Below are positions 5,124 through 61,994 of a DNA stretch of 64,000 bases, piece by piece. The DNA is from an uncultured Clostridia bacterium. Lineage in GTDB: Bacteria > Bacillota > Clostridia > TANB77 > CAG-508. Made by a program: the position numbers and the translations under genes. Under the pieces are notes generated by a model. The model saw nothing but the letters and a program-made list of their open reading frames with translations, did no database searches and had not been told where the DNA came from. Numbering within the stretch: position 1 is the stretch's first letter; the number at the start of each line of letters is the position of its first letter. The stretch is from contig CALXRX010000005.1 in assembly GCA_944390975.1 (NCBI GenBank), positions 8,182 through 72,181 on the forward strand, written 5' to 3'.

Positions 5124-6476
5124 ATGGCGGTATATAGATATAGAGCTTTAACGCCTAATGGTGTAATTGTTAGTAATCGTATAGATGAAAACAATAGAAG
5201 TGCAGTAATAAAGAAACTAAAAAGAAATAATTTAACACCAATAAGCATTACAGAACAAATAGGATTAGCAAAAAAACCTGCTAAATCTAATAAAAGAAAC
5301 GTAAAAGATATTGAAGATATTATAAAGAATGTAAATACTTCTAATATTGTAACAAATAGGGAGAAAAAAAGAGAATCCTATATACAAAAAATTAATAAAG
5401 CTTTAGCTAAAACAGAAAAAATAACAACAAGAGATATAGTTATATTTACGCAAAATTTCTATTTGTTAAAAAAAGCTAATTTTAACAACATACATGCTTT
5501 AAATACAATTATAGAAAGTACAGAAAACTATATTTTTAGAGGAATATTAGAAGACATATTAGCAGGTGTTGAAGCAGGGGAAAATATGTATACTACTATG
5601 GAATATTATTCTAATGTATTCCCATATATTTATATAAATATGATACGTGTTGGAGAACTATCGGGATCTCTTACAAACTCTTTAAAACAAGCAGTTAAGT
5701 ACCTTGACGATAGTACAAATATTAACAAGAAATTAAAAAATATTTTAATACCAAACCTTGTTCAATTTGCTTTATTATTGGTAATGTTAGTAGTAGGTAC
5801 ACTTGTTGCTGTTCCAGCAATTCAAAATGTATTTGATGCTGTAGGAACAAAAGATACTCTACCAGCTTTAACGCTTTGGTTTAAAGATTTCTTAGATAAA
5901 TTAATTATGTATTGGTATGTTCCAACAGCTATTATAGGTGCAATTGTTGTATTTGTTATAATGTATATTAGAACACCAAAAGGAAAATACAACTTTGACT
6001 ATTTTAAATATACTATGCCAATCTTTGGAAAGCTAATTTTTGCTTTAGATTTTTCAAGATTAATGAAAGCTATGCTTCTTAACTTAAATAATGGAATGAG
6101 AATACAAGAGGCATTAGAAGTAAGTAAAAATATATGTAAAAATTATGTTATGCTTTCAATAATTGAAACTTCAATAAATAACATTTTAATTGGACAATCT
6201 TGGATTGAGCCATTTGAAAGATCTGGATTACCATCTTCAATGATAACAGAAATGTTAAAAATAGGTATGAAAACAGATTTATCTGAAATGATGGAAAAAC
6301 TAGTAGAATATATGGAAATAGATATAAATAACATAATAGATAATATTATGAAAGTATTACCACAAGTAGTATATAGTATAGTTGGTATTGTATTAATATT
6401 CTTCGTACTAATTGTATTAGTTCCTGCATTACAATTATACATGGGTAACTTCTTAATTTCAGCAGCAGGATTTTAA
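5124..6476 (+). CDS. pilC: type IV pilus inner-membrane platform protein PilC (GspF family)
   Basis: 450 aa polytopic protein with two GspF-like repeats. Follows pilB and pilT. Confidence 0.8.
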   Translation: MAVYRYRALTPNGVIVSNRIDENNRSAVIKKLKRNNLTPISITEQIGLAKKPAKSNKRNVKDIEDIIKNVNTSNIVTNREKKRESYIQKINKALAKTEKITTRDIVIFTQNFYLLKKANFNNIHALNTIIESTENYIFRGILEDILAGVEAGENMYTTMEYYSNVFPYIYINMIRVGELSGSLTNSLKQAVKYLDDSTNINKKLKNILIPNLVQFALLLVMLVVGTLVAVPAIQNVFDAVGTKDTLPALTLWFKDFLDKLIMYWYVPTAIIGAIVVFVIMYIRTPKGKYNFDYFKYTMPIFGKLIFALDFSRLMKAMLLNLNNGMRIQEALEVSKNICKNYVMLSIIETSINNILIGQSWIEPFERSGLPSSMITEMLKIGMKTDLSEMMEKLVEYMEIDINNIIDNIMKVLPQVVYSIVGIVLIFFVLIVLVPALQLYMGNFLISAAGF

Positions 6477-22516: not shown

Positions 22517-22575
22517 GGTGAGACAAGGTTAGGCATCTTTTCGTGTTAACGTTTAGTCTATTTTACTTTTTAATA

Positions 22576-32836: not shown

Positions 32837-34429
32837 ATGCTAAAACAAGAAAAGGGTTCAATAACATTGTTTGTTTTAATTGCTATGCTATTTTTTACAA
32901 TATTCTTAATTGGAATGTATATATTAAGTACAAATAGTGAAAGTATCCAAATAGAAGAAATGGCAAAAATAAAAGAGATATATGAAGAAGGAGCTAATAA
33001 TGTAGATGATGTATATGCTACAGTAGAGAATAAAGAAATAAAAGAAATAGCACTAGATGGAAGTTGGAGTAGTGCAAATAAAGTAAACAAGCCAAATTTA
33101 GAAAATACAGGATTACAACCAATAGTAATAAATAGTAATGGAACAACATCTACACCAGATACAACAAAAGAAAACTGGTACAGTTATGATGGAGTAGAAA
33201 ATAAATGGGCAAATGCACAAACAGCAGATGGAAGCATGTGGGTATGGATACCAAGATACGCATACAAAATAACATATAATGATGCAAGTGATAAATCACA
33301 AGGAGGAACAATAGATGTAGTATTCTTGCAAGGAACAAGTAACTTAGATAAAAATGGAAAAGATGTAACTCAAGAAAATTATGTAGATGAAAAAGGGAAC
33401 ACAGGAGCATATATAGTACATCCAGCATTCGAAGATGGAAGTAGCAATGGATACCCAAATGGAGAATGGAATAAAAAGATAGAAGGAATATGGGTAGCAA
33501 AATTTGAAGCAGGATATCAAGATGCAGATAAAGCAGTAAACTCAAATGTAGGATATAGTGTAACAGATGGTTATGATGGAACTACAGCAGGAGATATAAA
33601 AAATAATTACTATGAAGAAATACAACAAGGAACAAAAATAAAATTTCCAACATTTATAGCAAACAAACCAAGTATAAATTATATTGGGGTAAATGACAGC
33701 TATGATTTATGTAAGGATTTAACAAGTACAAATGCCCCATACAAATTAAATGGAAATAAAGTAGATAGTCATTTAACAAAAAATAGTGAATGGGGAGCAG
33801 TAGCATATTTAACACACAGTAAATATGGAAGAAACGGACAAGAAGTAACAATAAATAATGTATCTGTAAATGGAGAAAATACAGTATATGCAGTAACAGG
33901 GTATGCAGGAGAAAGTGTTAGTGCAAATCCAGTAACAACGAATTTGACAGCTATAAAAAATAACGAAGTAGCAGGAAGTTGGACAACTGAACAAGGACAA
34001 AAAGCAAGTAGTACAGGAAACATATATGGAATATATGACTTAAGTGGAGGACTATGGGAATGGACAGCAGGATATATAGCGCCAGAAACAGGAAACTATC
34101 AAACATATGGAGGAAGCTTAAAAGGAGAAAGTAATCAGTATAAAAGTAAATATGCAGGTGTATCTGACAAAGATTTAGACAATTACAATGAAACAGCAAA
34201 TGCTAGTAGAGTTGGAGAAGCTATATGGGAAACTTCAGCAAGTGGAACATATCCAGGGAAAAGTGCATGGAATAGCGATTACTCATATTTTGTTTCTCTT
34301 TCAGGAGTATTTACTGAACGTGGAGGTGGATGGGGTAGTACAACTATTGCCGGTGTTTTTGCATTCACTCGCAATGAGGGTTTTGGTAATTATAATGTCG
34401 GTTTCCGTCCAGTGTTAATAGTTGAGTAG
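32837..34429 (+). CDS. paralog 1: pilin-like N-terminal anchor plus FGE-sulfatase (C-type-lectin fold) domain protein with hypervariable C-terminus
   Basis: N-terminus MLKQEKG-SITLFVLIAMLFF. SUMF1/FGE-family motifs HLTKNSEWGAVAYL, NIYGIYDLSGGLWEWTAGY, RGGGW and GFRPVLIV. The last ~120 nt are A-poor and GC-rich. Confidence 0.7.
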   Translation: MLKQEKGSITLFVLIAMLFFTIFLIGMYILSTNSESIQIEEMAKIKEIYEEGANNVDDVYATVENKEIKEIALDGSWSSANKVNKPNLENTGLQPIVINSNGTTSTPDTTKENWYSYDGVENKWANAQTADGSMWVWIPRYAYKITYNDASDKSQGGTIDVVFLQGTSNLDKNGKDVTQENYVDEKGNTGAYIVHPAFEDGSSNGYPNGEWNKKIEGIWVAKFEAGYQDADKAVNSNVGYSVTDGYDGTTAGDIKNNYYEEIQQGTKIKFPTFIANKPSINYIGVNDSYDLCKDLTSTNAPYKLNGNKVDSHLTKNSEWGAVAYLTHSKYGRNGQEVTINNVSVNGENTVYAVTGYAGESVSANPVTTNLTAIKNNEVAGSWTTEQGQKASSTGNIYGIYDLSGGLWEWTAGYIAPETGNYQTYGGSLKGESNQYKSKYAGVSDKDLDNYNETANASRVGEAIWETSASGTYPGKSAWNSDYSYFVSLSGVFTERGGGWGSTTIAGVFAFTRNEGFGNYNVGFRPVLIVE

Positions 34430-34509: not shown

Positions 34510-34870
34510 TATGGAAAAAATAAATAAAAAGCTTGACAAAGTAATATAAGTAAATATAAAATTGTATCATAAAACGGGAAAAAGAGTTTAACAGAATTTA
34601 AACTTAAATTTATCAAAAAACTTGTTCAAGCTAATTTACAAAGATATTCTAAAATAATTTTATGGCACCCTTCCATTTAAAATGAACACTTTCCATAAAA
34701 TTATTTAAGAATATCTAAAGCAAATTACTTTCAATGCGTTTTTTTCAAATTTGAAGTTTTAAATTCTGTTAAATAAAATTTCTAGTAGGCAAGCAAATGA
34801 AGCTAAAATGTATAAAAAAAAGTTAAAAGTAAAAAATAAAATCACAAAAGAGAATGAGGAGGAAAGGTCA

Positions 34871-35909
34871 AGTGATAAGGAAAAAGGAGAAAAGCAGTAA
34901 AAATAATTTAAAATCAAAAAACGAGATAGGAATCACATTAATAGCTTTAATAATAACAATAATCATCTTGTTAATACTTGCAGGAGTGACAATAAACTTA
35001 ACATTAGGAGAAAATGGGATATTTAGAACAGCAGAGATGGCAGGAAAGAACTATATGGAGGCACAAGAAAGAGAGTTAGCAGGACTAGCAGACTTTGAAA
35101 AAGCAATAAATAATATAATAGGAGGAACAGGAAGTAGCAGTGACACAGATACACCTGTTATAAATTATGACACATTAAAAAGTGTAGCAGATCCAGGAGA
35201 TTATGTAAAATATGATACAGGGATAACATCAGTTGGAAATAATGGAATAGTAACATTTAGGGTATTGTATAATGATGATACATATGGATTGCAAATAATA
35301 TCAGATAAAAATCTAGAGGAAATAAATTTTGGAATAACTAAATCTAATGATTTGGCCACATGGGAATTAGTAATGAATGATTATAACAATGCAATAACTA
35401 CATTAAATGAAAAAGCGGAGTATTATATAACAAATAGTCCATATGCACTAGATGGAAGATGTGTGGGAAGTGTAGCAACAATAGGAGCAGATGGAAAATT
35501 TAATGAAAAGAATACAGAAGTAGAAGGAACATATAATATACCAGATTCATGGACATTACCAAGTGGATGGAGTAGTAGAGATACAGGATGTAAAAAAGTG
35601 ACTGATGAAAATTATATAACAGACCAAATGACTATGGAAGCATTAGGACTATGGAGAACAGATGAAAACTATTGGCTAGCATCCCACCATGTAAATTTGG
35701 ATACAGACGATTTGACTTTTTTTGTGAATGGTGTTGATAGCAGTGGGAACGTTTTCTTAGCTCACATGTGTGGTGCCTATCCAAGTGGTAGCACAGTTAC
35801 TGGCTCTTATAAATTTGGGCTTCGTCCTTGTATATCTTTAAAATTTGATGTCAAGGTAATAGCAGGAGATGGAAAAACAGAAGCTACTGCATATGAGTTA
35901 GGAATATAA
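34871..35909 (+). CDS. pilin-like N-terminus protein with globular C-terminal domain (putative modular minor pilin)
   Basis: Likely GTG start at 34871 after a GAGGAGG RBS; the ORF-track ATG is 34854. EIG-ITLIALIITIIILLILAGVTINLTLGENGIF is near-identical to the pilin of 262..489. The C-terminus ...GSYKFGLRPCISL is NNY-codon rich. Confidence 0.5.
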
Positions 35910-35917
35910 GGCTTGAT

Positions 35918-36085
35918 ACTCTAAAATATATATTTCTCAAATTTTTATACAAAAACCTTGGTGTCGCAACCTACAAAGTAAGAAAACAAGACGTAGGTTG
36001 CTCCAAGTCGCACTCGCTTCAAAAGAAGCGAGTTTGGTCGCTTACGCGGTTTTTATAAAAATTTTCTAAATATATATTTTAGAGT
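35918..36085. other. about 168-bp element: ~38-bp AT-rich inverted-repeat arms enclosing a 90-nt GC-rich multi-hairpin core
   Basis: Arms are actctaaaatatatattt...aaaaacc and ggttttt...aaatatatattttagagt. The core has hairpins gcaacctac/gtaggttgc and actcgcttc/gaagcgagt, and a thrice-repeated gtcgc. Confidence 0.5.
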
Positions 36086-36123
36086 GAGGGGAGTAAAAAG
36101 AGTATGTAAAATCTTTAAAAAGC

Positions 36124-36175
36124 TAGTCAAAAGTTTTGTAAGTAAAAGCAGAGTAAACTTGACTAGTTTTTTTGC
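36124..36175 (+). terminator. Rho-independent terminator
   Basis: gctagtcaaaagtt...aaacttgactagt hairpin followed by T7. Confidence 0.55.
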
Positions 36176-36350: not shown

Positions 36351-37955
36351 ATGTTAAAACAAGAGAGAGGCTCAATAACATTGTTTGTATTAATAGCAAT
36401 GCTATTTTTTACAATATATCTAATTGGAATGTATATATTAAGCACAAATAGTGAAAGTAGCCAAATAGAAGAAATGGCAAAAATAAAAGAAATCTATGAA
36501 GAAGGAGTAAACAATATAGATGATGTATATACTACATTAGAAAAAAGAGAAATGGAAAATAATGAGAAAGATATTGCACTAGATGGAAGTTGGAGTAGCA
36601 CAAATAAAGTAAACAAGCCAAATTTAGAAAATACAGGATTACAAGCAATAGTAATAAATGCTGATGGAACAACATCTACACCAGATAGTAAAAAAGAAAA
36701 TTGGTACAGTTATGATGGAGTAGAAAATAAGTGGGCAAACGCACAAACAGTAGATGGAAGTATGTGGGTATGGATACCAAGATATGCATATAAAATAACA
36801 TACAATGATGGAAGTGATAAATCACAAGGAGGAACAATAGATGTAGTCTTTTTGCAAGGAACAAGTAACTTAGATAAAGATGGAAAAGATGTAACCCAAG
36901 CAAGTTATTTAGATGAAAAAGGACAAACAGGAGCATATATAGTACATCCTGCATTTGAAGATGGAAGTAGCACAGGGTATGCAAATGGTGAGTGGAGAAA
37001 AAAGATAGAAGGAATATGGGTAGCAAAATTTGAAGCAGGATATCAAGATGCAGATAAAGCAGTAAATTCTAATGTGGGATACACTACTATATATAGTTAT
37101 GAAATAGATGGAACAGAAGCAGATAGAACAACATATTATTATGGAGAAAGGGTAGTAGGAACAAAGATAAAATATCCAACATTTACAGCAAATAAACCAA
37201 GTATAAGCTATATAGGAATAAGTGATAGTTATGATTTATGTAGAGATTTAACAAGTATGAATGCTCCATATAAATTAAATGGAAACAAAGTAGATAGTCA
37301 CTTAACAAAAAATAGTGAATGGGGAGCAGTAGCATATTTAACACACAGTAAATATGGAAGAGGAGGACAAGAAGTAACAATCAATAATATAACAGTAAAT
37401 GGAGAAAATACAGCATATGCGGTAACAGGATATGCAGGAGAAAGCGTTAGTGCAAGCCAACTAGTAACAAATTTAACAGCAATAAATAATAATCAAGTAG
37501 AAGGAAGTTGGACAACTGCACAAGGACAAAAAGCAAGTACTACAGGAAATATATATGGAATATATGATTTAAGCGGAGGACTATGGGAATTCACAGCAGG
37601 ATATATAGCACCAGAAACAGGGAACTATCAAACATATGGAGGAAGTCTAAAAGGAGAAAGTAACGAATACAAAAGTAAATATGCTGGGGTATCAGAAACA
37701 GCTGAAACAAACTACAACGAAATAGTCAATAAAGGAAGAATTGGAGAGGCAATATGGGAGACATCAGATAGTGGAAGCACTGTTAATGGTGCATGGAATA
37801 GCGACTATAGTGCTTTTGTACGTTCTATAGCACCATTTACAGTCCGTGGAAGTAATTGGAGTTTCGATTCTAAAGCCGGACTCTTTGCGTTCGACCGTAC
37901 TTATGGTTTTTGCCGTTTCCAGGTTGGTTTCCGTCCAGTGCTTATAATTGAGTAG
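36351..37955 (+). CDS. paralog 2: pilin-like N-terminus plus FGE-sulfatase/CLec-fold protein with hypervariable C-terminus
   Basis: About 85% identical to paralog 1 over the first ~480 aa. The first ~45 codons are identical. C-terminus ...VRGSNWSFDSKAGLFAFDRTYGFCRFQVGFRPVLIIE. Confidence 0.7.
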   Translation: MLKQERGSITLFVLIAMLFFTIYLIGMYILSTNSESSQIEEMAKIKEIYEEGVNNIDDVYTTLEKREMENNEKDIALDGSWSSTNKVNKPNLENTGLQAIVINADGTTSTPDSKKENWYSYDGVENKWANAQTVDGSMWVWIPRYAYKITYNDGSDKSQGGTIDVVFLQGTSNLDKDGKDVTQASYLDEKGQTGAYIVHPAFEDGSSTGYANGEWRKKIEGIWVAKFEAGYQDADKAVNSNVGYTTIYSYEIDGTEADRTTYYYGERVVGTKIKYPTFTANKPSISYIGISDSYDLCRDLTSMNAPYKLNGNKVDSHLTKNSEWGAVAYLTHSKYGRGGQEVTINNITVNGENTAYAVTGYAGESVSASQLVTNLTAINNNQVEGSWTTAQGQKASTTGNIYGIYDLSGGLWEFTAGYIAPETGNYQTYGGSLKGESNEYKSKYAGVSETAETNYNEIVNKGRIGEAIWETSDSGSTVNGAWNSDYSAFVRSIAPFTVRGSNWSFDSKAGLFAFDRTYGFCRFQVGFRPVLIIE

Positions 37956-38210: not shown

Positions 38211-38459
38211 ATGACTAATACTAATATAACTAATTTTAGAAAGAATATATATAACCTATTAGAAAAGACAATCAAATACAATGAGCCAATTAATATTTCA
38301 ACGAAAAATGGCAATGCTGTTATTATATCCGAAGAAGATTATAACAGCATAATAGAAACATTGTATATATGCTCAATACCTAAATTAAAAGAAGATATAC
38401 AAAAAGGATTAAAGGAAAATATTGAGAACTGTGTACCAGAAGATGAGGTGGAATGGTAA
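38211..38459 (+). CDS. yefM: Phd/YefM-family antitoxin
   Basis: 82 aa, with the FRKNIYNLLEK...PINISTKNGNAVIISEEDYNSIIETLY pattern of YefM. Confidence 0.75.
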   Translation: MTNTNITNFRKNIYNLLEKTIKYNEPINISTKNGNAVIISEEDYNSIIETLYICSIPKLKEDIQKGLKENIENCVPEDEVEW

Positions 38460-38462
38460 ACA

Positions 38463-38729
38463 ATGTATAATATAGTATATATAAAACAAGTAATAAAAGA
38501 TATACCAAAACTAAAAGCTATTGGATTAAGTAATAAAGCTAAAAATTTAATAGATATTATAAAGTCAAATCCGTATCAAAATCCACCACCTTATGAAAAA
38601 CTTATTGGAGATTTACAAGGTGCATATTCAAGAAGAATTAACATACAGCATAGATTAGTGTATCAAGTTTTAGAAGAAAAAAAAACAATAAAAATATTAA
38701 GTATATGGTCACATTATGAAAATGTATAA
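38463..38729 (+). CDS. yoeB: YoeB/Txe-family toxin (ribosome-dependent mRNA interferase)
   Basis: 88 aa. Begins 4 nt after the yefM stop. Conserved ...RRINIQHRLVYQV...IKILSIWSHYE. Confidence 0.75.
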   Translation: MYNIVYIKQVIKDIPKLKAIGLSNKAKNLIDIIKSNPYQNPPPYEKLIGDLQGAYSRRINIQHRLVYQVLEEKKTIKILSIWSHYENV

Positions 38730-39094: not shown

Positions 39095-40696
39095 ATGTTA
39101 AAACAAGAGAAAGGATCAATAACATTGTTTGTATTAATAGCAATGCTATTTTTTACAATATATTTAATAGGAATGTATATATTAAGCACAAATAGTGAAA
39201 GTAGCCAAATAGAAGAAATGGCAAAAATAAAAGAAATCTATGAAGAAGGAGTAAACAATATAGAAGATATATATGCCACATTAGAAAAAAGAGAAATGGA
39301 AAATAATGAAAAAGAAATAGCACTAGATGGAAGTTGGAGTAGCACAAATAAAGTAAACAAGCCAAATTTAGAAAACACAGGATTGCAACCAGTTATAATA
39401 AATGCAGATGGGACAACTGCTAAACCAGATAGTAAAACAGAAAATTGGTATAGCTATGATGGAGTAGAAAATAAGTGGGCAAACGCACAAACAGCAGATG
39501 GAAGTATATGGGTGTGGATACCAAGATACGCATATAAAATAACATACAACGACTCAAGTGATAAATCACAAGGAGGAACAATAGACGTAGTATTTTTACA
39601 AGGAACAACTAACTTAGATAAAAATGGAAAAGATGTAACACAAGCAAGTTATGTAGATGAAAAAGGAGTAACAGGAGCATATATAGTACACCCAGCATTT
39701 GAAGATGGAAGCAGCACAGGGTATGCAAATGGAGAGTGGAGAAAAAAGATAGAAGGAATATGGGTAGCAAAATTTGAGGCAGGATACCAAGATGTAGATA
39801 AAGCAGTAGATTCAAATGTGGGATATAGTACAATATATAGTTGGGAAATAAACAAAACATCAGCAGATAGAACAACATACTATTATGGAAAAAGAACAGT
39901 AGGAACAAAAATAAAATATCCAACATTTACAGCAAACAAACCAAGTATAAATTATATAGGAATAAGCGATAGTTATGATTTATGTATGGATTTAACAAGT
40001 ACAAATGCCCCATATGGATTAAATGCAGCCAAAGTAGATAGTCATTTAACAAAAAATAGTGAATGGGGAGCAGTAGCATATTTAACACACAGTAAATATG
40101 GAAGAAACGGAAAGGAAATAACAATAAACAATATAACAGTAGATGGAGACAGTACAGCTTATGCAGTAACAGGATATGGAGGAGAAAGTGTTAGTGCAAG
40201 CCAACTAGTAACAAATTTAACAGCAATAAATAATAACCAAGTAGCAGGAAGTTGGACAAGTTCACAGGGACAAAAAGCAAGCAGTACAGGAAATGTATAT
40301 GGAATATATGACTTGAGCGGAGGATTATGGGAATTCACAGCAGGATATATAGTACTAGATTCAGGCAACTATCAAACATATGGAGGAAGTCTAAAAGGAG
40401 AAAGTAATCAATATAAAAGTAAATATGTAGGTATAGCTGAAACATATGAAATAAATTATTCTAATGAAGGAAATGTAAATAGAAAAGGAGAGGCAATATG
40501 GGAGACATCAGATAGTGGTGAGGGAACAACTTCATGGAATAACGACCACTCCTTTTTTGTGTATTCTTCGGAACCTTTCCTTGCTCGTGGAGGTAGATGG
40601 AGTTACACGTCTGATGCTGGTGTGTTTGGATTCAGTTGCAGTTACGGTTACGGCAATTGCAGTATTGGTTTCCGTTCAGTGCTTATAGTTGAGTAG
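39095..40696 (+). CDS. paralog 3: pilin-like N-terminus plus FGE-sulfatase/CLec-fold protein with hypervariable C-terminus
   Basis: Same architecture as paralogs 1 and 2. C-terminus ...ARGGRWSYTSDAGVFGFSCSYGYGNCSIGFRSVLIVE. Confidence 0.7.
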   Translation: MLKQEKGSITLFVLIAMLFFTIYLIGMYILSTNSESSQIEEMAKIKEIYEEGVNNIEDIYATLEKREMENNEKEIALDGSWSSTNKVNKPNLENTGLQPVIINADGTTAKPDSKTENWYSYDGVENKWANAQTADGSIWVWIPRYAYKITYNDSSDKSQGGTIDVVFLQGTTNLDKNGKDVTQASYVDEKGVTGAYIVHPAFEDGSSTGYANGEWRKKIEGIWVAKFEAGYQDVDKAVDSNVGYSTIYSWEINKTSADRTTYYYGKRTVGTKIKYPTFTANKPSINYIGISDSYDLCMDLTSTNAPYGLNAAKVDSHLTKNSEWGAVAYLTHSKYGRNGKEITINNITVDGDSTAYAVTGYGGESVSASQLVTNLTAINNNQVAGSWTSSQGQKASSTGNVYGIYDLSGGLWEFTAGYIVLDSGNYQTYGGSLKGESNQYKSKYVGIAETYEINYSNEGNVNRKGEAIWETSDSGEGTTSWNNDHSFFVYSSEPFLARGGRWSYTSDAGVFGFSCSYGYGNCSIGFRSVLIVE

Positions 40697-41288: not shown

Positions 41289-42179
41289 ATGAGTATGGAT
41301 ATGATAAAAACAGAGATATATGTTGAAAAAAATAAAGTCAGTGTAATTAGAATAAATAATAAGGAATACATATCATTAACAGATTTAGCAAGATATGCAA
41401 ATCCAGAAGAACCCAAAATACCAGTACAAGCTTGGATGAGAAATAAAGATGTAATTTCATATTTGGGATTATGGGAAAAGCTTAATAATGAAAATTTCAA
41501 AGGTCACGAATTCGAGACCTTTGAGAATGAAGCAGGTAAACATAGCTTTTATATGTCACCGCAAAAATGGATAAAGGAAACAAATGCTATTGGTATTATA
41601 TCAAAGTCTGGAAACAATGGAGGGACATTTGCACATAGTGATATAGCATTTGAATTTGCAAGTTGGTTATCTCCAGAATTTAAGTTATATTTAATTCAAG
41701 AATTTGAAAGGCTAAAAAAGAATGAATCATATCAATATAAAATTGAATGGCAAGCTAATAGAGTATTATCAAAGGTAAATTATTTAGTACATACTGATGC
41801 CGTAAAAATGAACATAGTTCCAGTTTTAACAGAAGAACAAAAGAGATATGTTTATGCTGAAGAAGCAGATGTATTGAATGTTGCATTATTTGGAATGACA
41901 GCTAAACAGTGGAGAACACAAAATCCAGATTTAGTAGAAAAAGGTAATATGAGAGACTATACTGGTTTACTTCATTTGGTTATTTTGAGTAATTTAGAGA
42001 ATACAAATGCAGAATTAATAAATGCAGGAGTACCACAAAGTGAAAGATTAATAAAATTAAATGATTCAGCAAGAAGGCAAATGAGAGTATTAGAAAACAA
42101 CAAAGGAATAAAAGAATTAGAAAATTTACAAGATGAAATAAATGAAATCAATATTTTGAAGATAAAAGATAAAAATTAG
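41289..42179 (+). CDS. KilA-N domain protein (phage/plasmid-associated DNA-binding domain)
   Basis: 296 aa. The N-terminal 110 aa carry a KilA-N/APSES-like pattern (ISLTDLARYAN...WMRNKDVISYLGLWE). The C-terminus is coiled-coil. Confidence 0.55.
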   Translation: MSMDMIKTEIYVEKNKVSVIRINNKEYISLTDLARYANPEEPKIPVQAWMRNKDVISYLGLWEKLNNENFKGHEFETFENEAGKHSFYMSPQKWIKETNAIGIISKSGNNGGTFAHSDIAFEFASWLSPEFKLYLIQEFERLKKNESYQYKIEWQANRVLSKVNYLVHTDAVKMNIVPVLTEEQKRYVYAEEADVLNVALFGMTAKQWRTQNPDLVEKGNMRDYTGLLHLVILSNLENTNAELINAGVPQSERLIKLNDSARRQMRVLENNKGIKELENLQDEINEINILKIKDKN

Positions 42180-42625
42180 AACTTTTGAATCGTCCAGACG
42201 TCTGAACAATTTAAAAATGAAAATCGTTTTAGATTAAATTTCTAAAGCGATTTTTATGGAAATTTTTTATCTACATTTTGAAGATATAAAGTTATATAAA
42301 AAACAAATAAAAATGGCTAGAAATTAAAAATAAGTCGAATAAAGAGAATAATGAAAACAAAGAATAGCAAAATTATATGCAAATGAAATACTCTAAGATA
42401 AGACACATGATTTGCATATAAGAAACCAGCTACTAGAGTAGATAAACTACTTGGGTAGCTGATTTTTTAGTTAAAGTTGAGAATAGCAATTTTAACTAAA
42501 ACATAAAAAATATAAAAATATTTTTTATGCAAAGGGGTGTGGGGAAAAATAAATTTTTCCCTGCCACATTAACACTTTTTAGTGATAGCGTTAAAAAGTG
42601 TTGTAGTGTGTTTACTGCACATTTG

Positions 42626-42871
42626 GAATGGACAGCAGGATATATAGAACTAGAAACAGGGAATTATCAAACATATGGAGGAAATCTAAAAAGGGAAAGT
42701 AACGAATACAAAAGTAAATATGCAGGTGTATCAGATAAAGATATAGACAATTACAACGAAATAGCAAATACAACTAGAAAAGGAGATGCGATATGGGAGA
42801 CTTCAAATAGCGGAAGTGGAAGTAATTCATGGAATGGAGGATACTCATGTTTCATGCATACTACTTGTTAA
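42626..42871 (+). pseudogene. internal fragment (~82 codons) of an FGE-domain paralog, truncated at both ends
   Basis: Homology begins at gaatggacagcaggatatata (EWTAGYI...) and ends inside the variable C-terminal region. The 3' end is fused directly to the conserved upstream module of paralog 4. Confidence 0.6.
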
Positions 42872-43020: not shown

Positions 43021-44628
43021 ATGTTAAAACAAGAGAAAGGATCAATAACATTGTTTGTATTAATAGCAATGCTATTTTTTACAATATATCTAATAGGAAT
43101 GTATATATTAAGTACGAATAGCGAAAGTAGTCAAATAGAAGAAATGGCAAAAATAAAAGAAATATATGAAGAAGGAGTAAACAATATAGAAGATGTATAT
43201 GCCACATTAGAAAAAAGAGAAATAGAAAATAATGAAAAAGAAATAGCACTAGATGGAAGTTGGAGTAGCACAAATAAAGTAAATAAACCAAATTTAGAAA
43301 ATACAGGATTACAAGCAATAGTAATAAATGCTGATGGAACAACATCTACACCAGATAGTAAAAAAGAAAATTGGTATAGCTATGACGGAGTAGAAAATAA
43401 ATGGGCAAATGCCAAAACAGCAGATGGAAGCATGTGGGTATGGATACCAAGATATGCCTATAAAATAACATATAATGATGCAAGTGATAAATCACAAGGA
43501 GGAACAATAGATGTAGTATTCTTGCAAGGAACAAGTAATTTAGATAAAGATGGAAAAGATGTAACCCAAGAAAATTATATAGATGAAAAGGGAGCAACAG
43601 GAGCATATATAGTGCATCCAGCATTTGAAGATGGAAGTAGTACAGGATACCCAAATGGAGAATGGAGAAAAAAGATAGAAGGAATATGGGTAGCAAAATT
43701 TGAAGCAGGATACCAAGATGTAGATAAAGCAGTAGACTCAAATATAGGATATAGTACAATATATAGTTGGGAAATATCAGGAACGCCAACAGCAGATAGA
43801 ACAACATACTATTATGGAGAAAGAGAAATAGGAACAAAAATAAAATACCCAACATTTGTAGCAAACAAACCAAGTATAAATTATATTGGGGCAAGTGATA
43901 GTTATGACTTATGTAAGGATTTAACAAGCACAAATGCACCATATGGATTAAATGCAAACAAAGTAGATAGCCATTTAACAAAAAATAGTGAATGGGGAGC
44001 AGTAGCGTACCTAGCACATAGTAAATATGGAAGAAATGGACAAGAAGTAACAATAAACAATATAAATGTTAATGGCGACACTACAGCATATGCAGTAACA
44101 GGATATGGAGGAGAAAGTGCTAGTGTTGGAGGGGTAATAACAAATTTAACAGCAATAAAAAATAACCAAGTAGAAGGAAGTTGGACAACATCACAAGGGC
44201 AGAAAGCAAGTACTACAGGAAACATATATGGAATATATGACTTAAGTGGAGGACTGTGGGAATGGACAGCAGGATATATAGCACCAGAAACAGGAAACTA
44301 TCAAACCTATGGAGGAAGCTTAAAAGGAGAAAGTAATCAGTATAAAAGTAAATATGCAGGAGTATCTGCAACAGATGAAACAAATTACAAGGAAACTGCC
44401 AATATAAATAGAATTGGAGAAGCAATATGGGAAACATCAACAAGTGGAGCATGGCCAAGTACAACTGCATGGAATAGCGACTATACCTGTTTTGTAAGTA
44501 CAAGTCCATTCATTGTTCGTGGTGGAACTAGAATCGACAATTATGCTGCTGGTATGTTTTCGTTCGCTCGTGGTACCGGTTACAACGTTTTCGATGTTGG
44601 TTTCCGTTCAGTGCTTATAGTTGAATAG
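43021..44628 (+). CDS. paralog 4: pilin-like N-terminus plus FGE-sulfatase/CLec-fold protein with hypervariable C-terminus
   Basis: Same architecture. C-terminus ...VRGGTRIDNYAAGMFSFARGTGYNVFDVGFRSVLIVE. Confidence 0.7.
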   Translation: MLKQEKGSITLFVLIAMLFFTIYLIGMYILSTNSESSQIEEMAKIKEIYEEGVNNIEDVYATLEKREIENNEKEIALDGSWSSTNKVNKPNLENTGLQAIVINADGTTSTPDSKKENWYSYDGVENKWANAKTADGSMWVWIPRYAYKITYNDASDKSQGGTIDVVFLQGTSNLDKDGKDVTQENYIDEKGATGAYIVHPAFEDGSSTGYPNGEWRKKIEGIWVAKFEAGYQDVDKAVDSNIGYSTIYSWEISGTPTADRTTYYYGEREIGTKIKYPTFVANKPSINYIGASDSYDLCKDLTSTNAPYGLNANKVDSHLTKNSEWGAVAYLAHSKYGRNGQEVTINNINVNGDTTAYAVTGYGGESASVGGVITNLTAIKNNQVEGSWTTSQGQKASTTGNIYGIYDLSGGLWEWTAGYIAPETGNYQTYGGSLKGESNQYKSKYAGVSATDETNYKETANINRIGEAIWETSTSGAWPSTTAWNSDYTCFVSTSPFIVRGGTRIDNYAAGMFSFARGTGYNVFDVGFRSVLIVE

Positions 44629-46075: not shown

Positions 46076-47005
46076 TTGACAATATATCTTGATGTAATAC
46101 TAATGGAAAATATGTGTATGAATTATATTATATTGTTTGCTACAGGATTAATTGGAAAAATGAAGATAAAGCAAATTAGAATTATTATTTCTAGTTTACT
46201 AGGAGGAATATATGCTATTTTATCTTTTGTTCCAATATTAGAAATCTATTCTAATTTTATATTAAAAATCATTTTATCAATTACAATGATTTACATTGCA
46301 TTTAATCCTAAAAATTTTAAACAAATGTTAAAAGAATTAATACTATTTTATCTAGTTTCGTTTGCTTTTGGTGGATGTGCATTTTGTCTACTATATTTCA
46401 TTAAACCACAAGACATATTAATGAGAAATGGATACTTAACAGGAACATATCCAATAAAAATAGCTTTTTTAGGAGGTATAGTAGGGTTTGTAATAGTAAA
46501 TATAGCATTCAAACTAGTGAAAAATAGAATATCTAAAAAAGATATGTTTTGTGATATAGAAATATATTTAAAACAAAAAAGTGTAACAATAAAAGCAATG
46601 ATAGATACAGGAAATTTATTAAAAGATCCAATAAGTGGTATGCCTGTTGTGGTGGTAGAAAAAAGAAAATTAGAAGAATTAATACCTAGAGAAATTATAG
46701 ATAATTTAAATGTAATATTAAAAGGAGATAATAAAGAATTAAATGAAGGAGAAGCAAGAGAGTTTTTACCCAAATTTAGAGTAATACCATTTTCATCTTT
46801 AGGTAAACAAAATGGAATATTATTAGGATTTATTGCAGATAAAATCATAATTAAACTAGATGAAAAGGAAAAAGAATTGAGCAAAATTATTGTGGGAATA
46901 TATGATAAATATTTAACAAAAAATGGAGCTTATACTGGTTTAGTTGGGTTAGATATTATAGAAAGGTGTGAGGAAAATGAATATTTTACAAATATTAAAA
47001 TCTAG
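46076..47005 (+). CDS. spoIIGA: sporulation sigma-E factor-processing peptidase SpoIIGA
   Basis: TTG start after GAGGAGG. N-terminal MTIYLDVI..., five TM helices and the catalytic IDTGN motif. Followed by sigE. Confidence 0.8.
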
Positions 47006-47715
47006 TATTAATACTATATATGTTAAATATATAAATAAAGATTTAGAGGATATAGAAGAACTTCCAATATATTATATAGGAGGAAGCCAAACCTTGCCAC
47101 CTCCATTAGAAGTGAATGAGGAAGAAAAAATGTTAGAGGCATTATCTAAAGGAGATGACAAAGCAAGACAAACATTAGTAGAAAGAAATTTAAGATTAGT
47201 AGTATATATTGCTAAAAAATTTGAAAATACAGGAATAGGGATAGAAGATTTAATTTCAATTGGAACTATAGGGTTAATGAAAGCAGTTAATACATTCAAC
47301 ACAGATAAAAATATAAAACTCGCAACATATGCATCAAGATGTATAGAAAATGAAATATTAATGTATTTAAGAAGAAGCAATAAAATAAAACGGAGAAATA
47401 TCTATAGATGAGCCATTAAACCAAGATGGAGACGGAAATGAACTATTATTATCAGATATTCTAGGAACAGAAAATGATGTAACATCAAGAGCAATTGAAG
47501 ATGAAGTAGATAAAAGCCTTCTTAGAGCATCAATGCAAAAATTAAGTAATAGAGAAAAAAATATTATGGAATTACGTTTTGGTTTTATAAGTGGAAATGA
47601 AAAAACTCAAAAAGAAGTGGCTGATATGCTAGGAATTTCACAAAGTTACATATCAAGACTAGAAAAAAAGATTATAAATAAAATGAAAAAAGAAATAATG
47701 AGTAAAACAGGTTAA
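46977..47715 (+). pseudogene. sigE: RNA polymerase sporulation sigma factor SigE, reading frame interrupted by an apparent 1-nt insertion near 47390-47396
   Basis: The pro-sequence plus [13 protein letters not shown]...[39 protein letters not shown]...YLRRSNKIK is in frame 46977. The conserved continuation EISIDEPL...[11 protein letters not shown]...[12 protein letters not shown] is in the +1 frame (ORF 47533..47715). Confidence 0.6.
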
Positions 47716-51836: not shown

Positions 51837-51935
51837 ACTCTTTTTCTATAAATTTGTATTAATTATATAAATACGAAAAATAAAAGTCAACATTATCACA
51901 AAAAAGTTGATATAGTTTCAGACTATGAGTACTTA

Positions 51936-52085
51936 ATTGATAGATAATAGTATATAAATATTGAAGAACGATGAGGAGCCATAAGTGGGGACCAATAGAA
52001 ACTGTTAAAATGTGCAAACATTTTATACAGTTTCATTGGGGAATGGCGACTGTTCAAAATATTTATATACTATTATCTATCAATT
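51936..52085. repeat. MITE-like palindromic element, copy C (opposite orientation, perfect 27-bp terminal repeats attgatagataatagtatataaatatt, ~45-bp internal insertion)
   Basis: Shares terminal repeats and core with copies A, B, D and E. It additionally contains the palindrome aaactgttaaaatgtgcaaacattttatacagttt. Confidence 0.7.
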
Positions 52086-52227
52086 TTAAAAAAGTAAAAT
52101 AGTATAAACATTAACAAAAAGTTATGCAAATACATGTTAAAGTCTTGATTTTTATTGATTTTTATGTTAAGATAGATATGTATACAAATAAAGAGAGGTG
52201 AAACCTAAATAAATTTTAGGAATTAGT

Positions 52228-60237: not shown

Positions 60238-60330
60238 AAGTTAATTGTATATAAATATTGAAGAACGATGAGGAGCCATAAGTGGGAATGGCGGCTGTTC
60301 AAAATATTTATATACTATTATCTATTGATT
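60238..60330. repeat. MITE-like palindromic element, copy D (opposite orientation)
   Basis: ttgtatataaatattgaagaacgatgaggagccataagtgggaatggcggctgttcaaaatatttatatac. Confidence 0.7.
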
Positions 60331-60366
60331 TAAAAAAGTAAAATAGACTAAACAATAACAACATAT

Positions 60367-60612: not shown

Positions 60613-61257
60613 TTATTGTTTAAATTTACCATAACTATTACAAAAAGATTTAATAGTACATATTTCACATTTAGGATTTCTAGAATCACAAGTTTTTCTA
60701 CCATGCCAAACAAATAAGTGATTTATATCCTTTAAATATTCTTTTGGAAAAATTTTTAGTAAATCCTGTTCTATTTTTTCAGGAGTAGCATTATTAGAAA
60801 GACCAATTCTATTAGAAATTCTTTTAGCATGAGTATCTACTGCTATACCTTCAGCAATTCCAAACACTTCAAGTAAAATAACATTTGCACTTTTTCTACC
60901 CACACCAGGAAGGCTTGTAAGTTCTTCCATAGTATGAGGTACAACTCCATTAAAATCTTCAACTATTTTTTTTGCACAAGCTTTAATATTTTTTGCTTTA
61001 TTTTTATAAAAGCCACATGGATGAATTAAAGTTTCTAACTCAGTTATATCAATATTTGCGAAATCTTCTGGAGTAGAATATTTTGCAAATATTTGAGGTG
61101 TAGTTTTATTTACTCTTTCATCTGTACATTGTGCAGATAACATAACAGAAACTACTAATTCAAATGGATTTGAAAAATCTAAACTACAAGTTGCATCTGG
61201 ATATGTCTTTTTTAGTGTATCAATTAATTTTATTGTATTATTTTTATCTAAATTCAT
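60613..61257 (-). CDS. nth: endonuclease III
   Basis: HhH-GPD domain and the [4Fe-4S] cluster motif C...CDSRNPKCEICTIKSFC. Confidence 0.85.
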   Translation of the reverse strand: MNLDKNNTIKLIDTLKKTYPDATCSLDFSNPFELVVSVMLSAQCTDERVNKTTPQIFAKYSTPEDFANIDITELETLIHPCGFYKNKAKNIKACAKKIVEDFNGVVPHTMEELTSLPGVGRKSANVILLEVFGIAEGIAVDTHAKRISNRIGLSNNATPEKIEQDLLKIFPKEYLKDINHLFVWHGRKTCDSRNPKCEICTIKSFCNSYGKFKQ

Positions 61258-61315
61258 TTTATCACCTTTTTTTAATAATTTAATATAATATATTAAGGAT
61301 TGGAGGTAAGGTATT

Positions 61316-61855: not shown

Positions 61856-61994
61856 TTTAAATTGCACCTCCTATAAAGTTAATAAATTGTCTACTAAATA
61901 GTTTAACACAGTATTAAAAAAAAAACAATAGTTTATTGGAAATTTTTATTTATTATGGTAAAATAAAGTTACTGTTCAACCTATAAATAGTTAA

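Follow-up and report, generated by a model that had tools for sequence, protein, structure and literature searches.

A candidate family of dispersed palindromic DNA repeats with a conserved core and variable arms in uncultured gut Clostridia

Sequence comparison indicates that the element at positions 35918 to 36085 of the window (the whole 64-kb stretch of DNA analysed here) is one copy of an uncatalogued, dispersed palindromic DNA repeat family in uncultured gut Clostridia. The best explanation, to which we give about even confidence, is that the family consists of non-autonomous foldback (MITE-like) interspersed DNA repeats belonging to a lineage of uncultured, low-GC, spore-forming gut Clostridia. 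First, arms and core together recur as one unit in intergenic regions that are otherwise unrelated; relatives lack the unit at the syntenic positions, and its presence can cut genes short at their ends. Second, the core is conserved across subfamilies and the arms are not, yet the arms always pair. Third, alleles that are otherwise identical differ by inversion or deletion of the centre, and recombination takes place between different copies.

A sequence-only reading of this DNA had placed inverted arms at 35918 to 35957 and 36048 to 36085 around a core carrying hairpins and GTCGC repeats, and all of these features are present there. The left AT-rich arm (P1, 5′ side, 35918 to 35957) has a GC content of 17.5% and the right (P1, 3′ side, 36048 to 36085) one of 13%. 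Over 36 nt (35918 to 35953 and 36050 to 36085) they are complementary at 89% without gaps, and across their full extent 35 of 40 positions pair (∼38 bp, interrupted by a 2-nt bulge and an internal loop of 3 nt). As far as about 35944, the outer left arm is similar to DNA on the 3′ side of a paralogous gene that has no core (L025 7266 to 7300). Between the arms, the conserved core (35958 to 36047, + strand) is 90 nt long and has a GC content of 47.8%, compared with 13 to 18% in the arms and 26.9% in the window, close to the ∼50% core in 27% GC DNA of the earlier estimate. The folded core is a four-way junction closed by the arms and is built of three related GTCGC-plus-hairpin modules, with GTCGC starting at 35963, 36007, and 36037. 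Module 1 (35958 to 36006, + strand) comprises the invariant stem TTGG/CCAA (35958 to 35961 and 36003 to 36006), the internal loop TGTC, and hairpin 1, a perfect 9-bp stem (GCAACCTAC, 35966 to 35974, with GTAGGTTGC, 35993 to 36001) with a variable loop. Module 2 (36007 to 36033, + strand) is GTCGC followed by hairpin 2 (ACTCGCTTC, 36012 to 36020, with GAAGCGAGT, 36025 to 36033), which is a perfect 9 bp in the window copy. The 3′ linker TTGGTCGCTTACGC (36034 to 36047, + strand), nearly invariant among copies, holds the third GTCGC (36037 to 36041). Relative to shuffled sequences, the 186-nt region folds with z scores of −8.9 as + strand RNA and −9.8 as − strand RNA, and folding as single-stranded DNA is as good (−9.4); none of 200 shuffles folds as well as the element, and the window hairpin has a stability of about −65 kcal/mol.

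The window is chromosomal DNA of a low-GC spore-former with the gene order ftsA, ftsZ, a ∼13.5-kb variable island (32.5 to 46 kb), spoIIGA, sigE, and sigG, and the element sits within this ftsZ-spoIIGA island. It starts 9 nt past the stop codon (35907 to 35909) of a 351-amino-acid gene (34854 to 35909, + strand) and ends 35 nt before a separate terminator-like hairpin followed by TTTTTTT (36121 to 36172, + strand), which agrees with the position previously assigned to it. The same T-run hairpin also follows the homologous copies in L023. The earlier judgement that the element is not needed as a terminator is reasonable, because this separate hairpin follows it. An intrinsic terminator has a GC-rich stem and an immediate U-run, whereas the right arm runs into GAGGGGAG, and a terminator scan of the element found no site. 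The description of the 351-amino-acid gene as “pilin-like” holds for its prepilin-like N-terminal hydrophobic helix (G|ITLIALIITIIILLILAG), which is the only pilin likeness, but does not extend to any Pfam or NCBIfam model, none of which matches the protein. Directly past the right arm (36086 to 36108), the Shine-Dalgarno-like GAGGGGAG is followed by a 10-nt spacer and then ATG and TAA (a start-stop mini-ORF); GAGGGGAG is not kept in the L023 copies, which have TAAGGATAG there.

Although the element had been termed unique, this is true only inside the window, as it is a member of a multicopy family. A scan of one genome per species for the linkers alone (GGTGTCGC..CCAAGTCGC..TTGGTCGC) recovered 8 copies in 5 uncultured Clostridia MAGs, with no more than 3 per genome. 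A two-block metagenome scan added 12 loci, and a core HMM revealed extra copies within the fetched loci and beside pilin-like homologs, bringing the family to about 15 distinct loci, spread over at least 8 assemblies of uncultured Clostridia. Known copies per genome reach 3 or 4, which is a lower bound; copy number and diversity are underestimates because the scans demanded exact linker matches. All relatives are MAGs or metagenome contigs, in which palindromes can be mis-assembled. Every family copy is intergenic, and most adjoin unrelated housekeeping genes. The repeats are small, noncoding, multicopy, dispersed, and present or absent between relatives. The Rfam search that had been proposed for the element gave no family match at gathering or E-value thresholds: no Rfam 15 covariance model matched the window or 12 copy-bearing loci at the gathering threshold, and matches below it were only to generic long hairpins (miRNA precursors). 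Neither blastn against phages and plasmids with three queries nor scans of viral contigs found a relative of the element. Look-ups by exact protein sequence gave no entry or, in one case, just a short contig.

The core is ∼88 nt long family-wide, with nearly invariant linkers and variable hairpin loops. In an alignment of 14 distinct copies (A4), the invariant or nearly invariant blocks are TTGGTGTCGCAA, TTGCTCCAA-TCGC, and TTG-TCGCTT-CGC. A structure of four helices (arms, TTGG/CCAA, hairpin 1, and hairpin 2) fits this alignment, with pairing in 89% of cells, compared with 77% in shuffles and 30 to 51% in slid-partner controls. Changes on both sides occur in 13 of the 25 pairs, a value that none of 500 shuffles reached. 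Three pairs of hairpin 1 covary across copies. Hairpin 2 carries a conserved T/C mismatch (columns 73/90) in 13 of the 14 distinct copies, the perfect hairpin of the window being the exception; the neighbouring pair (74/89) is unpaired in 10 of 14, and the apical stem both varies and covaries. In some copies the second module also ends in GCTCCA. The test suggested in the sequence-only reading, conservation and covariation in relatives, has thus come out positive on both counts, which argues for a real structure that is selected or actively maintained. Covariation implies that single strands fold and is silent on whether these are RNA or DNA.

In every copy the arms pair right up to the core boundary, and their sequences differ between subfamilies. 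Arm lengths range from 22 nt (L017) through ∼40 to 70 nt and 83 to 91 nt (L013 and L012) to at least 120 nt in L016, where complementarity is 98%. Copies with close cores have the proximal 13 to 25 arm nucleotides in common and diverge beyond them. Compensated changes are also present in the arms, and arm mismatches comprise 12 G·T and 12 A·C, with no strand asymmetry. In one lineage (L010 to L014, L019, L029, and L030), the arms consist of 32-nt tandem units, with 1 to 3 per side depending on the allele; the unit is GTTCCGGGTTT[AA/GG]ATGGCAATAA plus the spacer ATTGCAAT (for example, L013 8262 to 8344 and 8445 to 8527). Two convergent housekeeping genes take their stop codon and final residues (…ATSSGFKWQ) from these units, and protein clusters of 523, 526, 547, 553, and 560 amino acids, 98 to 99% identical, represent allelic arm states. 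Two other origins of the arms were rejected. Pre-existing palindromes as insertion targets are contradicted by two syntenic empty sites that lack a palindrome and by the tandem arm units, which were never seen without a core in about 100 kb. Inverted copies of the end of the gene for a FAD-dependent protein are contradicted by element-free homologs, which end in …AIxIL(E)xx, so that the arm is foreign. Capture of flanking DNA is possible for the outer left arm of the window copy, given its similarity to L025 7266 to 7300, and for L016; a solo-arm remnant would explain the L025 likeness equally well.

Several comparisons speak for mobile, unstable DNA. Between L002 and L006, copies are 87% identical over 165 nt including the arms, and the flanks have no homology; three loci in L012 have one 270-nt unit in common. 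L004 carries the element where the syntenic intergenic spacer of L006 is only 15 nt. The window itself provides an empty site at 61245 to 61282, where the syntenic region of L009 is filled and about 60 nt of window DNA contain neither core nor palindrome. In L013 two convergent genes both terminate inside the arms, and homologs show that the native last codons of the FAD-dependent protein have been replaced by arm sequence. A decayed, truncated copy lies at L023 840, after an EAL-domain gene. In L015 and L018 the left flank of one locus is joined to the core and right flank of another, which looks like ectopic recombination between copies, with assembly chimerism as a possible alternative.

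At the locus between the FAD-dependent protein and an aminotransferase, three alleles have flanks that are ∼99% identical and differ in the centre. The L013 allele has the core forward with 2+2 arm units. In the L030 allele the proximal arms and core are inverted, with 1+2 units. In the L029 allele, 165 nt including the core are deleted between ATTGCAAT and ATTGCCAT. L013, L011, L014, and L019 are oriented one way at this locus, and L030 and the VOFB contigs the opposite way. The evidence for inversion is the L013-L030 comparison only and is at assembly level; orientation differences in L016 and L012 were not counted because short-read assemblers may not resolve long, near-perfect arms. The earlier proposal of a recombination site or element end comes closer: the centre is inverted or deleted and copies recombine, but the element is a whole dispersed repeat and not the end of a larger one.

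How the repeats are mobilized can be proposed only by inference. Since whole units have moved with an invariant core but with ends that vary from one subfamily to another, a copying factor would recognize the core instead of the termini. A strand folding back on itself would expose the core at the hairpin tip, and an enzyme acting on such folded single-stranded DNA would most plausibly be the recognizing factor. The arms would be constrained only to pair and would be kept complementary by arm-to-arm correction (templated repair or gene conversion), which would account for near-perfect arms, compensated changes, gain and loss of units, and inversion of the centre. The same process could let arms lengthen, shrink, and gain tandem units, and slippage across the hairpin may have produced the deletion allele. 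Neither a transposase nor a target-site duplication was found. Neither the three copies with the same arms nor the filled and empty sites show a duplication, although boundaries there are blurred by arm extension and comparisons are at 76 to 78% identity, and no target motif is common to the flanks. About 250 kb of fetched flanks yielded no transposase, Y1/HUH enzyme, or tyrosine or serine recombinase in a crude motif search with partial Pfam coverage, and no parent autonomous IS was found in the fetched flanks, plasmid and phage collections, or viral contigs. Transposition from the lagging-strand template is expected to give a strict orientation bias; orientation relative to GC skew is about 10:5, with no clear replication-strand bias. 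Inversion of the centre would erase such a bias. The low known copy number, this weak skew bias, and conservation of the element above that of its flanks count against a mobile repeat.

A more specific form of the foldback reading, possible but in our view rather unlikely, is a “core-specified” foldback transposon, or reversed MITE. A trans-acting enzyme would recognize only the conserved four-way-junction core at the tip of a hairpin of single-stranded DNA, and cutting or copying would take place where the enclosing stem begins, whatever its sequence. If so, arms would be free to change, to capture flanking DNA, and to exceed 100 bp, and each copy would be an invertible, recombinogenic site able to reshuffle its neighbours, including the tandem pilin-like genes and the variable surface-protein genes of the island.

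The association of the window copy with the pilin-like gene extends to relatives. L022, recovered from an independent sample, matches the window exactly. In L023/L024, from a related genome in which the gene DNA is 79.5% identical, each of the two tandem pilin-like paralogs has the element behind it, with position and strand unchanged, so that elements lie 9 to 12 nt after the stop codon of three paralogs or orthologs. The element is 91.5% identical between the window and the L023 copies, compared with 79.5% for the adjacent genes and 76.8% for downstream DNA; the arms are nearly identical, with one compensated pair of substitutions, and differences are concentrated in the loops. Greater conservation of the element than of its flanks could reflect either a host function maintained by purifying selection or a recent conversion or transfer event, and the window copy appears to be under constraint or recently homogenized. 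Because same-place copies occur in L023/L024 and the element is conserved, the copy seems to have travelled with the pilin-like gene family or been retained behind it. Two further pilin-like paralogs (L025) lack the core, and one has the 3′ flank that resembles the outer left arm, which is either a native flank or a solo-arm remnant.

An alternative reading is a structured RNA. It could be a cis-element in the 3′ untranslated part of the pilin-like mRNA, acting as a stabilizer, partial terminator, or RNase III site, or else a gene for a small RNA; its core would then be a four-way junction that binds a protein, with a long helix as its handle. We regard this alternative as unlikely. It would account for strong covariation in all stems, for an element better conserved than its flanks with changes in the loops, for its location just past the stop codons of the three paralogs or orthologs, on the strand of the gene and with a terminator afterwards, and for invariant single-stranded linkers, which suggest a specific partner. 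Family copies, however, occur in either orientation relative to flanking genes: those in L007 and L008 run antisense to the genes on either side, and further copies separate convergent or divergent gene pairs. G·U mismatches, which RNA pairing would tolerate, do not exceed A·C (12 and 12 in the arms; 3 and 2 in the core stems), no promoter in the arms or terminator of the element's own was found, and no Rfam family matches. Arms of 83 to >120 bp are far longer than RNA function needs, and their entry into coding sequence, like the inversion and deletion alleles, is behaviour at the level of DNA. “Structured ncRNA” is accordingly the least supported of the three options originally offered for the element, which also included a recombination site and an element end. 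A generic effect of a very stable hairpin in either orientation is likely, secondary to the DNA-repeat reading, and the window copy, lying in the 3′ untranslated region of the pilin-like gene, probably has the additional effect of a barrier at the RNA 3′ end or of a partial terminator.

The alleles with core and proximal arms in opposite orientations could instead reflect a programmed invertible DNA switch (inverton), in which the arms are the inverted repeats, the core is the cargo, and each flip alters expression of a neighbour. The orientation of L030 should be reliable: its contig (name k99_) is probably from a k=99 assembly, and its arms share only ∼20 nt exactly (by eye). We nevertheless consider a programmed switch improbable. 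The arms differ between copies, leaving no conserved sequence for site-specific crossover; the crossover falls in distal tandem units and is accompanied by a change in unit number, as for homologous or replication-slippage recombination; and no recombinase gene was found nearby in the crude motif search with partial Pfam coverage. The core has no convincing outward promoter or terminator, and inversion is expected of any inverted repeat with a short spacer.

It is highly improbable that the element is a nonmobile, dispersed double-stranded cis-element of the host, a platform offering three GTCGC sites to a chromosomal protein, which ordinary recombination has scattered and selection retains. 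The linkers and all three GTCGC are invariant, conservation exceeds that of the flanks, and the only six + strand occurrences of GTCGC in the 64-kb window fall within the element (three) or copies of a second repeat family (three). Such a platform would leave unexplained the stem covariation and the need for long pairing arms; the GTCGC spacings of 44 and 30 bp are out of helical phase, and presence/absence and gene-end truncation resemble insertions. Great stability just past a stop codon might suggest a hairpin formed by chance or simply the intrinsic terminator of the pilin-like gene, but this has negligible probability, being refuted by covariation and by conservation of the core in at least 8 assemblies, and also disfavoured by the shuffles, a right arm without a T-run, the separate T-run hairpin 35 nt downstream, and the empty terminator scan.

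If the foldback-repeat reading is correct, the element works most like REPINs and MITEs but does not have their conserved ends, and of their other defining features neither target-site duplications nor a RAYT gene or parent IS was found in the loci and collections searched. REPINs are short, noncoding, intergenic repeats that fold into long hairpins; they persist within lineages and show no target-site duplications of the classical kind. An enzyme whose gene lies elsewhere in the genome presumably copies them by recognizing, in single-stranded DNA, a hairpin and a short adjacent motif. The element is likewise short, noncoding, intergenic, and folded into a long hairpin. Its geometry is reversed: in REPINs the inverted REP arms are conserved and recognized and the spacer is free, whereas here the centre is conserved and the arms are free. 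REPINs also number tens to hundreds per genome, compared with the few copies per genome so far recovered for this family, which is a lower bound. REPINs and REP sequences are described as mobilized by RAYT (Y1 HUH) transposases (PMC3116915, PMC3337134). In REP-RAYT systems the repeats flank a single-copy RAYT gene; a crude regular-expression search of the fetched loci found no Y1 motif and no RAYT gene.

Classical bacterial MITEs (such as Correia, RUP, and bcr1), which derive from ISs with a DDE transposase, are defined by conserved terminal inverted repeats matching an IS transposase and by target-site duplications. With MITEs and with stem-loop repeat families, a further comparison class (PMC2267715), the element shares a length of 100 to 300 bp, terminal inverted repeats, intergenic and dispersed positions, presence/absence, and foldability, and such repeats often affect mRNA 3′ ends, as the element could. 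It differs from MITEs in that its ends vary between subfamilies, no duplication was seen, and no parent IS is known; the arms are unrelated between subfamilies, and only ∼13 to 25 proximal nucleotides are shared within subgroups. Since the ends are not conserved and no duplication, RAYT gene, or parent IS was found in the loci and collections searched, we regard the element as a variant form of interspersed palindromic repeat outside the named families.

Other systems resemble the element in part. The palindrome-associated elements derived from IS200/IS605 (PATEs) lack long terminal inverted repeats, are strongly biased to one replication strand, and always insert on the 3′ side of a given tetra- or pentanucleotide. 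The element recalls PATEs in its conserved hairpins, internal or subterminal and next to short motifs, and in presumed single-strand chemistry; PATEs make no target-site duplication, and none was visible here. In contrast to PATEs, the element has long inverted repeats, no common flanking motif, and a skew orientation of about 10:5. Integron attC sites have conserved outer boxes (R″/L″ and L′/R′) and a variable centre and are recognized as a folded single strand. Like them, the element is an imperfect palindrome of variable length directly after an open reading frame, for which structure would matter more than sequence in recognition. An attC site was rejected on geometry, which is the reverse here, with variable outer ends and a conserved centre; there is moreover no integrase or cassette array logic, and copies also lie beside housekeeping genes. 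Invertons have recombinase-specific inverted repeats and locus-specific cargo such as promoters. The element resembles them as an inverted-repeat-flanked segment found in both orientations in natural populations (L013 and L030, at assembly level), and differs in that its cargo is conserved and its repeats are arbitrary: the arms are unconserved, and the crude motif search with partial Pfam coverage found no recombinase nearby.

Interspersed palindromic repeats are already known from many bacteria, and in MITEs and REPINs the ends are the conserved, enzyme-recognized part. A conserved centre with interchangeable long arms would point to a different recognition logic, structure plus an internal motif, and if a partner enzyme exists, this lineage, which metagenomes alone have revealed, would possess a DNA enzyme guided by hairpins. 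The elements truncate or extend gene ends, and they invert, delete, and recombine between copies, and they are likely breakpoints in assemblies of these genomes. Copies behind tandem pilin-like surface-protein genes could promote cassette shuffling or set mRNA 3′ ends.

A second palindromic repeat family has five copies in the 64-kb window (22575 to 22672, 32631 to 32744, 51935 to 52115, 60239 to 60364, and 61960 to 62121). Conserved AT-rich arms (AATTGATAGATAATAGTATATAAATATT plus outer arms) surround a GC-rich hairpin, GAAC-AGTC-GCCAT..ATGGC-TCCACATC-GTTC; one copy has a ∼50-nt insert, and one is without an arm. This family also occurs in related MAGs (L001 and L004), and it had no match in Rfam or among plasmids. 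Its design is that of the element, with AT-rich arms, a GC-rich hairpin, and (A)GTCGC…GCTCCA, and its arms are conserved. Upstream of the pilin-like gene lie nested long palindromes, an inner one with 37-nt arms and a 1-nt spacer (34642 to 34716) enclosed by an outer one with 34-nt arms (34587 to 34620 and 34740 to 34773); the core of neither repeat family lies inside this structure (34587 to 34773).

The ftsZ-spoIIGA island also contains a Phd/YefM-YoeB toxin-antitoxin pair and a KilA-N domain protein (38211 to 38729 and 41289 to 42179), which suggests that the island was acquired or is mobile. Four paralogs of ∼530 amino acids (32837 to 34429, 36351 to 37955, 39095 to 40696, and 43021 to 44628) are accompanied by a truncated copy (42500 to 42871). 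Their DNA is 83 to 96% identical except in ∼130 nt preceding a conserved GGTTTCCGT(C/T)CAGTG; this stretch is adenine poor, just 62 to 71% identical, and like the variable region of a diversity-generating retroelement (DGR). Two of the four have weak FGE-sulfatase matches. An adenine-mismatch scan found no template repeat for these paralogs in the window, and no reverse transcriptase is among the annotated open reading frames of the window. A DGR target hairpin was rejected as an identity for the element on both grounds, and a retron msr-msd was rejected since no adjacent reverse transcriptase is annotated. Beyond the island, sigE looks interrupted, with region 2 in a 147-amino-acid open reading frame and region 4 in a 60-amino-acid one in a different frame (46968 to 47411 and 47533 to 47715), by either a frameshift (pseudogene) or an assembly error; spoIIGA and sigG, which flank the split gene, are intact.

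A pilin-like homolog of 62% identity in L028 is followed after its stop codon by a different GC-rich double hairpin (6050 to 6135), formed by AGCCGAGAAG..CTTCTTGGCT and GGTGCCATGCG-TCAA-GCGTGGCAC, for which there was no gathering-level Rfam match. GC-rich hairpin elements may thus favour the 3′ ends of genes of the pilin-like family.
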